Source: Escherichia coli
Lineage (GTDB): Bacteria > Pseudomonadota > Gammaproteobacteria > Enterobacterales > Enterobacteriaceae
Length of the DNA stretch: 64,000 nt
Strand: one strand, 5' to 3'
Assembly: GCF_045037415.1 (NCBI RefSeq)
Contig: NZ_CP173438.1
The notes below the pieces were generated by a model. That model saw only the letters and a list, made by a program, of their open reading frames with translations. It was not told where the DNA came from and did not search any database. The position numbers and the translations under genes were made by a program. How positions within the stretch are numbered: the stretch's first letter is position 1; each line of letters begins with the position of its first letter. Positions 1,289 to 29,139 of the stretch are shown in pieces.

Positions 1289-2446
1289 CTACCGCTCTTC
1301 ATCCAGTTGTAACGCCACATACAGCAGCAACCTGTCATCAAAATTGCCCAAATCAAGCCCGGTCAGTTCCGATATACGATTAAGCCGATATTCCAGAGTA
1401 TTACGATGAATAAACAACGCCTTTGACGTTGCCAGCGGTTGCACATTGTGGCGAAACCACGCCGCCAGAGTTCGCCGCAGCAAGCCGTTATTGTCCATCG
1501 CTTTCAGCCGCGCCAGCGGTCGCGCCAGTTCGTTGGCCTGCCAGTCGCCACGCAAACTGTCGAGTAACACAGGTAACATCAGATCCTGATAAAAATAGCA
1601 GCGACTTTCTGGCATCCGCTGTTTACCCACCACCATCGTCGTTTTCGCCGTACGATAGGATCGGGCAATACTGCCAGGACCGGTAAAATAGTTGCCCAGC
1701 GAAACGCGAAAACGCAGCTGGCCATACTCTTTCATGCGGGTAATCAGTTGTTCAACTCGCTTACGATGATCTTCTGCGTCCCAGCGCCCAAAAGAGTTCA
1801 ACGCCGGTTTCAACACCACCATTTCGGTTAGCGAGACAATCGCCACTAGATTATTACGCTCGGGCGTAGTCAGCGCATTTTGCAGTTGCTGTAACTCCGC
1901 CATTGCGCTGTCCACACCAAGCTGACCGCTGTCGACCTCAACAATAGCCACCACTCGCGGTTGATTGAGATCGATCCCCAGCCGTTGCGCCCATTCAGTA
2001 AGTGCGGGAGTATTCTCCTCAGCCTGAATCAGGTTCATCACCAGTTCTTCCCGCAAACGGCTATCCTGCGCCAACAGGTGCATCAACCGCGACTGTTCCA
2101 GCATCATTTCAGCCGTCATGCAGACCAGTTCGCCATATTTACGCAGATTCTCTGGTTCACCTGTCAGGCCAATTACGCCGACAATTTCACCTTCCAGCCG
2201 TAACGGTAGATTAATCCCCTGCCGCACACCGTGCAGATGACGTGCCACCGCGTCATCGATATCGACGACTCGTCCTTGTGAAAGTACCAGCAATGCTCCT
2301 TCGTGCAATTCACCAATACGCTCACGATCGCCGCTGCCGATAATTCGCCCGCGGGCATCCATTACGTTGATATTGGTATCGATGATGCGCATGGTACGTG
2401 CCACAATATCCTGCGCCATTTTGGTATCAAGATGCCAACCAGCCAT
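1289..2446 (-). CDS. cdaR: carbohydrate diacid regulator CdaR (SdaR)
   Basis: ORF 1289..2464 translation; start moved to the MAGWHLDTKMAQ Met (385 aa) in line with the known N-terminus. Confidence 0.85.
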   Translation of the reverse strand: MAGWHLDTKMAQDIVARTMRIIDTNINVMDARGRIIGSGDRERIGELHEGALLVLSQGRVVDIDDAVARHLHGVRQGINLPLRLEGEIVGVIGLTGEPENLRKYGELVCMTAEMMLEQSRLMHLLAQDSRLREELVMNLIQAEENTPALTEWAQRLGIDLNQPRVVAIVEVDSGQLGVDSAMAELQQLQNALTTPERNNLVAIVSLTEMVVLKPALNSFGRWDAEDHRKRVEQLITRMKEYGQLRFRVSLGNYFTGPGSIARSYRTAKTTMVVGKQRMPESRCYFYQDLMLPVLLDSLRGDWQANELARPLARLKAMDNNGLLRRTLAAWFRHNVQPLATSKALFIHRNTLEYRLNRISELTGLDLGNFDDRLLLYVALQLDEER

Positions 2447-2564
2447 AAGTCCTCCATTATGCACGGCTTAGCATAAGGAAGTACGTAACGTACGGCATTG
2501 TGCAAATGCCCAAAGGATGATGAAGATGTATGGAGTTGTGGTGAAGTTCACAGATTGTAAGGAG

Positions 2565-2600: not shown

Positions 2601-4025
2601 TTACTGCATTAACAGGTAGATAGTGCTGTCGCCGCGCTGAATGTTCAGTGCCAGCACAGACGGTTTGCTGTCGAGAACTTTACGCAGTTCAGCGATGTTT
2701 TTCACTGCCTGCTGGTTCGCGCCAATAATCACATCACCTTTCTTCAGGCCGATCTGCGCAGCCGGAGTCCCCGTTTTCACGTTGTTCACCACCACGCCCT
2801 GATCTTTGCCTTTGTTACTCATCTCAGCGCCTTCAATGCCGTTGAAGATGGTGCTGGAATCAACCTGATTCTGGCTGCTCTGCTGAAGTTCCAGGTTCAC
2901 GTTAACCTGCTTCCCGTCGCGCAGTAAGCCCAGGGTCAGTTTGCTACCTACCGGCATAGTGCCCACCTGAGCACGCAGTGCGGCAAAGCTGCTGATTGGC
3001 TTACCGTTCAGTGAGGTGATCACATCACCCGCTTTAATGCCCGCTTTCGCGGCGGAAGAATTCGGCAGAACCTGGCTTACGAAAGCACCGCGCTGAGCGT
3101 CAACTTTCATCGCTTTCGCCAGATCGGAGTTCAGCTCAGTGCCCATAATACCCAACTCACCACGTTTCACCTGGCCGTATTCCACCATCTGCGAGGTCAG
3201 GTTTTTCACCATGTTGCTCGGGATAGCAAAACCGATACCGATGTTTCCGCCGTCCGGTGCGAGGATCGCGGTGTTGATACCAATCAGTTCGCCGTTCAGG
3301 TTAACCAACGCACCACCTGAGTTACCCCGGTTGATCGCTGCATCGGTCTGGATGAAGTTTTCGTAGTTTTCAGCGTTCAGGCCGCTACGTCCCAGCGCAG
3401 AGACAATCCCGGAAGTTACTGTCTCGCCCAGGCCGAACGGGTTACCAATTGCTACGGTGTAATCACCCACGCGCAGCGCATCAGAATCCGCCATCTTAAT
3501 TGCGGTCAGGTTTTTCGGGTTCTGGATCTGGATCAACGCGATATCAGAGCGCGGATCTTTGCCAACCATCTTCGCGTCGAACTTACGACCATCGCTAAGC
3601 TGGACTTTAATCACCGTCGCGTTATCAACAACGTGGTTGTTGGTGACGACATAGCCTTTATCGGCATCAATGATGACGCCGGAACCCAGCGCCATGAATT
3701 TCTGTTGCTGGCCGCCGCCATTACCGCCCGGGCCCCCCTGGCAGAACGGAGAGCTCTGGAACGGAGAACCCTCCTGGCAGAACGGAGAATCATCACCGAA
3801 GAACTGCTGGAAATTACGCGGCATACGCGGCGTATTAACGGTTGTGCTACCTTCTACGTTAATGCTGACCACTGAAGGCATCACCTTTTCGAGCATCGGT
3901 GCAAGGCTTGGCATCTGCTGGGCTGTCGTTGCTGAAGAAGTCTCAGCCGCCGTTGCAGAGAGCGGAGATAACGCCAAACCTAAACTCAGAGCCAGTGCAC
4001 TCAGTGCTAATGTGGTTTTTTTCAT
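2601..4025 (-). CDS. degP: periplasmic serine endoprotease DegP/HtrA (trypsin domain + 2 PDZ)
   Basis: 474-aa translation with signal peptide, GNSGGAL serine protease motif, PDZ regions. Confidence 0.95.
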   Translation of the reverse strand: MKKTTLALSALALSLGLALSPLSATAAETSSATTAQQMPSLAPMLEKVMPSVVSINVEGSTTVNTPRMPRNFQQFFGDDSPFCQEGSPFQSSPFCQGGPGGNGGGQQQKFMALGSGVIIDADKGYVVTNNHVVDNATVIKVQLSDGRKFDAKMVGKDPRSDIALIQIQNPKNLTAIKMADSDALRVGDYTVAIGNPFGLGETVTSGIVSALGRSGLNAENYENFIQTDAAINRGNSGGALVNLNGELIGINTAILAPDGGNIGIGFAIPSNMVKNLTSQMVEYGQVKRGELGIMGTELNSDLAKAMKVDAQRGAFVSQVLPNSSAAKAGIKAGDVITSLNGKPISSFAALRAQVGTMPVGSKLTLGLLRDGKQVNVNLELQQSSQNQVDSSTIFNGIEGAEMSNKGKDQGVVVNNVKTGTPAAQIGLKKGDVIIGANQQAVKNIAELRKVLDSKPSVLALNIQRGDSTIYLLMQ

Positions 4026-4069
4026 GTATTTCAGTCTCGATTAACAGATAACGCAAAATTGCTGTGTTC

Positions 4070-4098
4070 TTCAGATTCGTTTTATAGCGCGAAGTTCC
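4070..4098 (-). promoter_or_regulatory. sigma-E type promoter of degP (-35 GGAACTT, 16-nt spacer, -10 TCTGA)
   Basis: Minus-strand sequence cggaacttcgcgctataaaacgaatctgaagaac read directly; matches the sigma-E consensus and the degP promoter as recalled. Confidence 0.6.
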
Positions 4099-4154
4099 GA
4101 ACTAAAGTTTCTGCAAAAGGTAAAAATTTATTGTTCGTCTTTACAAAAGCCTGG

Positions 4155-5672
4155 TTATTGTTCTACGGCCATCAGACGTCGGTATTCATCCCACGCATAG
4201 AGGTCGGTCATACCGCTGATATAATCCTGCAGCAGGCGGCAACGGTAATAATATTCCCATAGCGGAAACTCAGGAGAATCTGACGGTAATTTACTGACAG
4301 CCTCGACATAGGCCAGCCGATGGCGCGTCGAGAGTTTGTGGAATAAGCGCGTTTCAATAGGGAAACGTTTCACCCGTTCTTTTTCTACCAGTTCAGTAAA
4401 GTCTGATAACGGCAGGTTTAATAAAGGACGATAAATCTCTAATAATCCGCTAATGACCCGATAGCCCTGCAATTCAAGCTGCTCGACATCTGGATGGCTA
4501 AACACATGTTTTACAGCGACATTTTTATATAGCTTAAGAAGATCGCTGCATTCGCTGGCATCTTCCAATAATGCATGATTAAACGTTCCGGCGAAAATCG
4601 CAGGCAGATTATCAATAAATCGTTGTGCCGCGTAGGGTACCAGTTTATTTAGGGTGTTTACCCGTAAATACATAAAAAACTGATCTTCCGTACTGCGGCT
4701 TAAACTATTTGAGCGTGATTTTTCCCAGGCATTTTCAACCACCAGCGAAAAGAGCGAACCTTTCTCATGCTGGCCCCACGCCTCGTGCAAATGATGATAA
4801 AGCTGCTCAACGGTAAATATCCTTTTCTCTACCGCATCTTCAAGGTCTGCCACACAATAGGAGATGTCGTCGGCAGCTTCCATAATCCACGTTAACGGAA
4901 AACGACTGTAAAGCGCCAAATTAAGTTCTTTACGCAACCGGGCAATATAGGCTTCTTCGGAAAGATAATAGCCCGGCTTTTTCATTAAATAGTGATGTGT
5001 CTCAGGCGTTTCACCACGCCACCACGCCGGACGGGTATATTTTAAAATACCGCCAACCTGCGCCCAGGTGAGATTCATCCGCATCAATGTATGCACCAAA
5101 CGAATACCCTGTGCGTTACCTTCAAAATGACATAAGTCCTGACGAATCTTGCGCCGCAGCGCGTTAAGCGGTTCTTCCCCGTCCCGTAAACGTAGTGCCG
5201 CCACGCTGCAGCGATCGTCAGTCAGAGGCTGGCTTTCGGCATCTTCCGGGTACAAACGCTGGCGAAACCAGTCATTTATCGCCGCTTCGCCAAAATGACC
5301 AAACGGCGGATTGCCGATATCGTGCATCAGGCATGACATCTCAACAATGCTTTCAAAGGGCCCGGTCAGTTCATCGAGACCATACGTCTCCAGTAATTTA
5401 AGCTCTTTCAGGCGGCTTAAAATCTCTTTAGCGATATAACGCCCCACCTGCTGGACTTCCATCGAGTGGGTAAGACGCGTGCGCACGGCGGCATTGCGCT
5501 CCAGTGGAAAAACCTGGGTCTTTTGTTGCAGACGACGAATTGCCGGAGAGTTGATGATACGCCCGCGATCGCTCTCGAAGATCCGCAGAATCTCATGTTC
5601 GGTTTTAACGCCCTGCGGTGAACGGTAACGACGATGCCAGTTTATTTTTTTTCGGAAATCAATCTGTGCCAT
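4155..5672 (-). CDS. dgt: dGTP triphosphohydrolase
   Basis: 505-aa translation, HD-domain dGTPase, conserved position after degP. Confidence 0.95.
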
Positions 5673-5755
5673 GTCCTCTCCCGCGTGAGAAATACGCTTC
5701 CCCGTAAGCGCATGGTAAACTATGCCTTCAAATCGGGCTTATCGCGAGTAAATCT

Positions 5756-6454
5756 ATGAAAATCGGCATCATTGGTGCAATGGAAGAAGAAGTTACGCTG
5801 CTGCGTGACAAAATCGAAAACCGTCAAACTATCAGTCTGGGCGGTTGCGAAATCTATACCGGCCAACTGAATGGAACCGAGGTTGCGCTTCTGAAATCGG
5901 GCATCGGTAAAGTCGCTGCGGCGCTGGGTGCCACTTTGCTGTTGGAACACTGCAAGCCAGATGTGATTATTAACACCGGTTCTGCCGGTGGCCTGGCACC
6001 AACGCTGAAAGTGGGCGATATCGTTGTCTCGGACGAAGCGCGTTATCACGACGCGGATGTCACGGCATTTGGTTATGAATACGGTCAGTTACCAGGCTGC
6101 CCGGCAGGCTTCAAAGCTGACGATAAACTGATCGCTGCCGCTGAGGCCTGCATTGCCGAACTGAATCTTAACGCTGTACGTGGCCTGATTGTTAGCGGCG
6201 ACGCTTTCATCAACGGTTCTGTTGGTCTGGCGAAAATCCGCCACAACTTCCCACAGGCCATTGCTGTAGAGATGGAAGCGACGGCAATCGCCCATGTCTG
6301 CCACAATTTCAACGTCCCGTTTGTCGTAGTACGCGCCATCTCCGACGTGGCCGATCAACAGTCTCATCTTAGCTTCGATGAGTTCCTGGCTGTTGCCGCT
6401 AAACAGTCCAGCCTGATGGTTGAGTCACTGGTGCAGAAACTGGCACATGGCTAA
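5756..6454 (+). CDS. mtnN: 5'-methylthioadenosine/S-adenosylhomocysteine nucleosidase
   Basis: 232-aa translation ([12 protein letters not shown]...); known Pfs/MtnN. Confidence 0.95.

Positions 6455-27889: not shown

Positions 27890-29139
<1,250 letters not shown>

Follow-up and report, generated by a model that had tools for sequence, protein, structure and literature searches.

The sigma-E promoter region of degP in the dgt-degP spacer of Escherichia coli, with its upstream CpxR sites and a fourU-type leader

The sequence GGAACTT-N16-TCTGA upstream of degP (htrA) in Escherichia coli is almost certainly the sigma-E promoter region of this gene, with CpxR input upstream and a thermometer leader; for the sigma-E dependence, the CpxR binding and the temperature response, we rely on the literature or infer them. 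DegP acts in the periplasm as the principal protease and chaperone of misfolded envelope proteins. The sigma-E promoter of its gene is real, strongly conserved, ordinary and already known. The preliminary description of this DNA had likewise regarded it as a conserved core feature and not as a novelty, and the same promoter has indeed been described in K-12. Three inputs, all of them known already, are stacked on degP within about 120 bases: sigma-E, CpxR and an RNA thermometer. The locus serves mainly as a positive control, where the reading of a textbook alternative-sigma promoter from the raw sequence agrees with every independent check.

Promoter elements and transcription start site in the dgt-degP spacer

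The window, i.e., the whole stretch of 64,000 nucleotides analyzed here, comes from Escherichia coli, and what is the plus strand in K-12 is the minus strand here. The degP and dgt reading frames both match equivalog models of NCBIfam far over the cut-off (Table 1). Since the degP frame begins at 4025 and the dgt frame, including the stop codon, ends at 4155, positions 4026-4154 represent exactly the dgt-degP spacer of 129 bases. A generic scan found no terminator after dgt. With a 401-base query around the spacer, we obtained matches in 5,424 of 5,426 complete E. coli genomes, at 99% identity or above in all but two of them, and the flanking genes of the matched loci are annotated as dgt and degP (dgt in over 5,400 genomes).

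Table 1. Features at the degP locus, in window coordinates.
Feature	Position	Strand	Evidence or remark
cdaR	1289-2464	-	Next gene after degP
degP (htrA) coding sequence	2601-4025	-	Open reading frame; NCBIfam NF008189, 935 bits (cut-off 720); gene driven by the sigma-E promoter
degP 5' leader with two codons, HtrA fourU RNA thermometer family	4020-4065	-	Rfam RF02700, 77 bits (gathering score 52)
degP start site, A	4065	-	40 nt before the ATG; K-12 180844 carried over the gap-free alignment
Sigma-E -10, TCTGA (-10 to -6)	4071-4075	-	Same element in K-12
Promoter spacer, 16 nt	4076-4091	-	Holds the 2-nt polymorphism (4090-4089) and the conserved GCTATAAA (4088-4081)
Sigma-E -35, GGAACTT (-33 to -27)	4092-4098	-	Exact match to the published consensus
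Proximal CpxR region, GTAAA-N15-TTTAC (-79 to -55)	4120-4144	-	Holds the catalogued "degP1", GTAAAGACGAACAAT, at 4144-4130
dgt (dGTPase) coding sequence, upstream neighbor	4155-5672	-	Open reading frame; NCBIfam NF003429, 895 bits (cut-off 405)
Distal CpxR box, GTAAATTACCGTCAG	4280-4294	-	Named "degP2" in De Wulf 2002; within the dgt 3' end; listed in PMC9600279

The preliminary description had recognized a sigma-E-type -35 GGAACTT and a -10 TCTGA with 16-nt spacing within the string cggaacttcgcgctataaaacgaatctgaagaac. This string is present on the minus strand at 4099-4066, and both elements and their spacing were found at the place given for them in the gap between dgt and degP. According to Rhodius et al., sigma-E promoters are defined by a -35 GGAACTT and a -10 TCAAA at a spacing of 15-19 nt, of which 16 nt is strongly preferred, together with a discriminator of 5 or 6 nt, a distance of 26 or 27 nt from the -35 element to +1, and an A/T-rich region upstream; the same authors place DegP in the conserved core sigma-E regulon. 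Besides the perfect -35 element, the -10 TCTGA agrees with TCAAA at only three of five positions and lies within 15-19 nt of the -35 element. The region upstream of the -35 element is A/T-rich and UP-like, with 19 A/T among the 27 positions from 4125 to 4099 (counted by hand). The promoter has the correct orientation for degP, the end of the -10 element being 45 nt away from the ATG. RNA polymerase with sigma-E (RpoE) would thus be expected to recognize GGAACTT (4098-4092) and TCTGA (4075-4071), separated by 16 nt on the minus strand, and the sigma-E holoenzyme would begin transcription at the A at 4065. We encountered no evidence contradicting the sigma-E reading in this analysis. A full-text literature search with the promoter sequence string returned no matches. 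The original in vitro work on sigma-E transcription of degP is reportedly that of Erickson and Gross from 1989.

On both strands of the window, the pattern GGAACTT-N15-17-TCNNA matched twice, compared with 0.29 matches expected from shuffled sequences. The other match, GGAACTTTCTGCCGAAGGCATGGCTCTTA at 29085-29113 on the plus strand, resides inside sfsA on the coding strand and has a 17-nt spacer with TCTTA as the -10 element. It is probably a chance match, given its weak -10 element, its 17-nt spacing, its location within a coding sequence and the 0.29 matches expected by chance. It would presumably point towards dksA, if we take the K-12 gene order to apply here.

The start site of degP in K-12 has been located at 180844 on the plus strand, with the ATG at 180884, in two independent genome-wide datasets (Kim et al., 2012; Cappable-seq). 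Kim et al. (2012) printed the sequence upstream of 180844, which ends with GGAACTTCAGGCTATAAAACGAATCTGAAGAACA, and in the Cappable-seq data 180844, with a score of 41.6, far exceeds all other starts nearby. The alignment with the K-12 degP promoter, suggested in the preliminary description as a check, covers 211 nt of MG1655 without gaps and shows only 2 differing nt, both in the promoter spacer. Carried over this alignment, 180844 falls on the A at 4065, so that the discriminator following TCTGA measures 5 nt and the distance from GGAACTT to +1 amounts to 26 nt, both within the ranges given by Rhodius et al. A sigma-E promoter is expected to start at an A or G located 5-6 nt after the -10 element and 25-28 nt after the -35 element, and the A at 4065 agrees with this. 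A mapped start inconsistent with the -10 element had been named as the finding that would overturn its assignment; the K-12 start fits TCTGA, and the assignment stands.

Conservation across Enterobacterales and the spacer polymorphism

For the comparison across Enterobacterales, we chose upstream regions by a degenerate pattern over the first 29 bases of degP only, with one genome per species, and the promoter was no part of this selection. The scan yielded 120 loci, which come from over 30 genera of the families Enterobacteriaceae and Erwiniaceae and represent 118 distinct upstream regions. All 118 regions contain NGAACTN followed, after 15-17 nt, by TCNNN, so that the promoter is conserved upstream of every degP orthologue in this set. 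The exact GGAACTT occurs in 82 of the 118 regions, and GGAACTA and TGAACTT in 17 and 16, respectively. TCTGA is the -10 element in 97 regions, and the spacer is 16 nt long in 109. The mean identity to the window is 0.955 for the -35 element and 0.949 for the -10 element, as compared with 0.478 for the discriminator, 0.628 for the linker upstream of the -35 element and 0.515 for the bases following the dgt stop codon. Both the -35 and the -10 elements stand out as a clear phylogenetic footprint. Two other segments show high mean identities, the proximal CpxR block GTAAA-N15-TTTAC (0.911) and GCTATAAA in the promoter spacer (0.867); the conservation of the latter goes beyond what sigma-E recognition alone explains.

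The contig CACSKA010000010.1, labeled as Chryseobacterium sp. 18061, also carries a dgt-degP spacer of the usual enterobacterial kind, including GTAAAG...TTTAC and GGAACTT, which suggests that this assembly is contaminated or mislabeled.

The two nucleotides that distinguish the window from K-12 are located at 4090-4089 (-25 and -24), just after the -35 element. The window contains CTTCGCGCT where K-12 has CTTCAGGCT, corresponding to GC and AG on the degP strand, respectively. A 71-base query centered on this polymorphism was found with 100% identity in 4,020 of 5,424 genomes and with one to three mismatches in the other 1,404, among which the K-12 allele was confirmed in the two genomes inspected. 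The GC allele of the window is common to E. albertii and Salmonella. Because of the identity in 4,020 of 5,424 genomes and the sharing with E. albertii and Salmonella, we consider the allele of the window to be the majority and ancestral form and the K-12 allele to be a derived minority.

CpxR sites and the fourU leader

Phosphorylated CpxR bound upstream of the promoter would provide a second, Cpx-dependent input, with the proximal site at -79 to -55 and the second box inside dgt. Table S1 of PMC9600279 lists two degP sites, GTAAAGACGAACAAT and GTAAATTACCGTCAG, as known CpxR sites and credits De Wulf et al. (2002) with both; Table 1 of the same article reports a 26-32 fold induction of degP by Cpx activation. 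The preliminary description had proposed to look for CpxR sites of the form GTAAA-N5-GTAAA upstream of degP. In this form the expectation failed, as no match with two or fewer mismatches is present inside 4026-4154. With the same tolerance, the whole window contains 68 matches, none of them in the spacer, as against 54 expected. Since searching with the plain consensus is thus uninformative here, we turned to a position-specific scoring matrix (PSSM), built from the 39 other known sites in Table S1 of PMC9600279, for which the median score of the known sites is 13.7 bits.

With this matrix, the proximal site GTAAAGACGAACAAT scored 6.1 bits (rank 186 of the 127,972 positions in the window), and the distal box at 4294-4280, which has two mismatches to the consensus, scored 12.0 bits (rank 4 of 127,972). 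Matrix score and conservation are opposed at the two sites. The weak proximal site is near-invariant, with GTAAA-N15-TTTAC present in 117 of the 118 upstream regions at a fixed distance of 20-21 nt from the -35 element, whereas the strong distal box is confined to Escherichia and a small number of close relatives (11 of 117 regions at two or fewer mismatches). The highest CpxR score of the window, 16.1 bits, belongs to GTAAATCTATGAAAA at 5748-5762 on the plus strand, in the divergent region between mtn and dgt and not at degP; this site is given as a dgt/mtn/btuF candidate in the supplement of PMC9600279. Neither the MarA 2025 paper, nor Shimada 2017, nor the paper on the dual regulation of psd mentions degP.

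Further upstream, inside dgt, there is a weak K-12 Cappable-seq start at 180669, corresponding to 4240 on the minus strand of the window. Its leader of 215 nt has the same length as that of Salmonella htrAp1, and a TATTAT hexamer (4253-4248) is located 7 nt upstream of it. The conservation of this hexamer says little because it lies within coding sequence (Glu-Tyr-Tyr-Tyr).

Judged from the aligned sequences, the conserved upstream unit reads as two inverted GTAAA pentamers around a central ACAAT and not as a canonical direct repeat. The inverted pair extends into the region in which an UP element would be expected. The distal box, the one CpxR box here that looks canonical, may serve the start at 4240 and not the sigma-E promoter, since it is centered about 47 nt upstream of 4240. 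The regulation of degP might accordingly be more composite, in that the inverted GTAAA-N15-TTTAC would be a site for CpxR bound head-to-head, or for CpxR together with an UP element, and the distal box would belong to an upstream promoter in dgt. We consider this arrangement possible but rather unlikely, and prefer to read the region as a sigma-E promoter with CpxR input upstream.

The transcript starting at 4065 begins with a leader that was absent from the preliminary description. RF02700 is the sole Rfam family matched in the whole window, and the match is full length (model positions 1-46 of 46), with model position 1 coinciding with the start site at 4065. The fourU pairing accompanies the match to the covariance model: UUUU at 4058-4055 is opposite to the Shine-Dalgarno GAGA at 4038-4035, upstream of the ATG at 4025-4023. 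SHAPE and reporter assays have demonstrated how the htrA leader of Salmonella is folded and that it melts between 30 and 42 degrees C. By analogy with this orthologue, the E. coli leader may also sense temperature. The 40-nt leader would form a weak fourU hairpin occluding the ribosome-binding site at low temperature, thereby placing translation under heat control. The predicted fold of the E. coli leader is very weak (-3 kcal/mol, z = 0.8), no more stable than that of shuffled sequence, and shifts the closing helix relative to RF02700. Among 20 other species tested, the threshold of RF02700 was passed by four, Salmonella and three Citrobacter species only, so the promoter is much more widely conserved than the leader model.

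Overlapping promoter, chance match and known systems

The main promoter of degP could alternatively be of the sigma-70 type, with TATAAA/TAAAAC inside the sigma-E spacer as its -10 element. Such a promoter would be CpxR-dependent, have no -35 element, and be the counterpart of Salmonella htrAp2, with a start about 7 nt upstream of 4065 at the G of TCTGA. The conservation of GCTATAAA beyond the need of a sigma-E spacer would fit this explanation, as would the second start in Salmonella, which has a 47-nt leader and falls on the G of TCTGA, and the Klebsiella pneumoniae start at 207608, which lies on the same G; in both Salmonella and Klebsiella, a TAAAAT hexamer is found 6 nt upstream of that G. 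In K-12, however, both start-site datasets give 180844 and none gives a start at 180851 or 180852. Moreover, the E. coli hexamer TAAAAC ends in C where a sigma-70 -10 element would have T, an acceptable -35 hexamer is absent, and a consensus scan found no sigma-70-like site on the degP strand. It is thus very improbable that a sigma-70-type promoter is the main one; an overlapping promoter of this type would be at most minor in E. coli.

At 4079-4086 on the minus strand, the spacer reads TATAAAAC in E. coli and TATAAAAT in Salmonella and Klebsiella. The latter sequence and the second start in these two genera are consistent with an overlapping sigma-70 -10 element TAAAAT. Across species, the two forms of the hexamer are about evenly distributed, with TAAAAC in 29 and TAAAAT in 27 of 117 regions.

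Short two-block motifs do arise by chance, as the second, looser match inside sfsA illustrates, but that GGAACTT-N16-TCTGA bears only a fortuitous resemblance to a promoter, and has no promoter function, is excluded for practical purposes by position, start site and conservation: even the looser pattern is expected just 0.29 times in the window, the motif is correctly oriented and ends 45 nt before the degP ATG, the mapped start sits at the predicted distance from it, and both blocks are about 95% conserved over more than 30 genera, as opposed to about 50-60% for the neighboring bases.

The sigma-E promoter region of degP and its accessory sites can be compared with four known systems. With the canonical CpxR box, as in cpxP, ppiA, psd and yccA, the site degP1 shares a perfect first half-site GTAAA and is catalogued as known; it differs in its second half-site, ACAAT, with three mismatches in all. 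With RF02700, a family of the fourU type defined on Salmonella, the E. coli leader has in common the full-length match and the pairing of the fourU stretch with the Shine-Dalgarno sequence. At model position 32, E. coli has a C (4034) where Salmonella has a U, which introduces an A-C mismatch into the lower stem in E. coli.

Salmonella enterica htrAp3 shares GGAACTT, the 16-nt spacer, TCTGA, the 5-nt discriminator and the 40-nt leader at homologous positions. In the first mapping study of Salmonella htrA, the transcript with the 40-nt leader was seen only under stress. The spacer of Salmonella contains TAAAAT and goes along with a documented second start (47-nt leader), whereas that of E. coli contains TAAAAC, with no such start in the two K-12 datasets. 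Finally, degPp of K-12, which is sigma-E dependent and CpxR activated, occupies the same locus and is identical in the -35 and -10 elements, their spacing, the start site, the leader and the CpxR sites, differing from the promoter in the window only in the two adjacent spacer bases at -25/-24.
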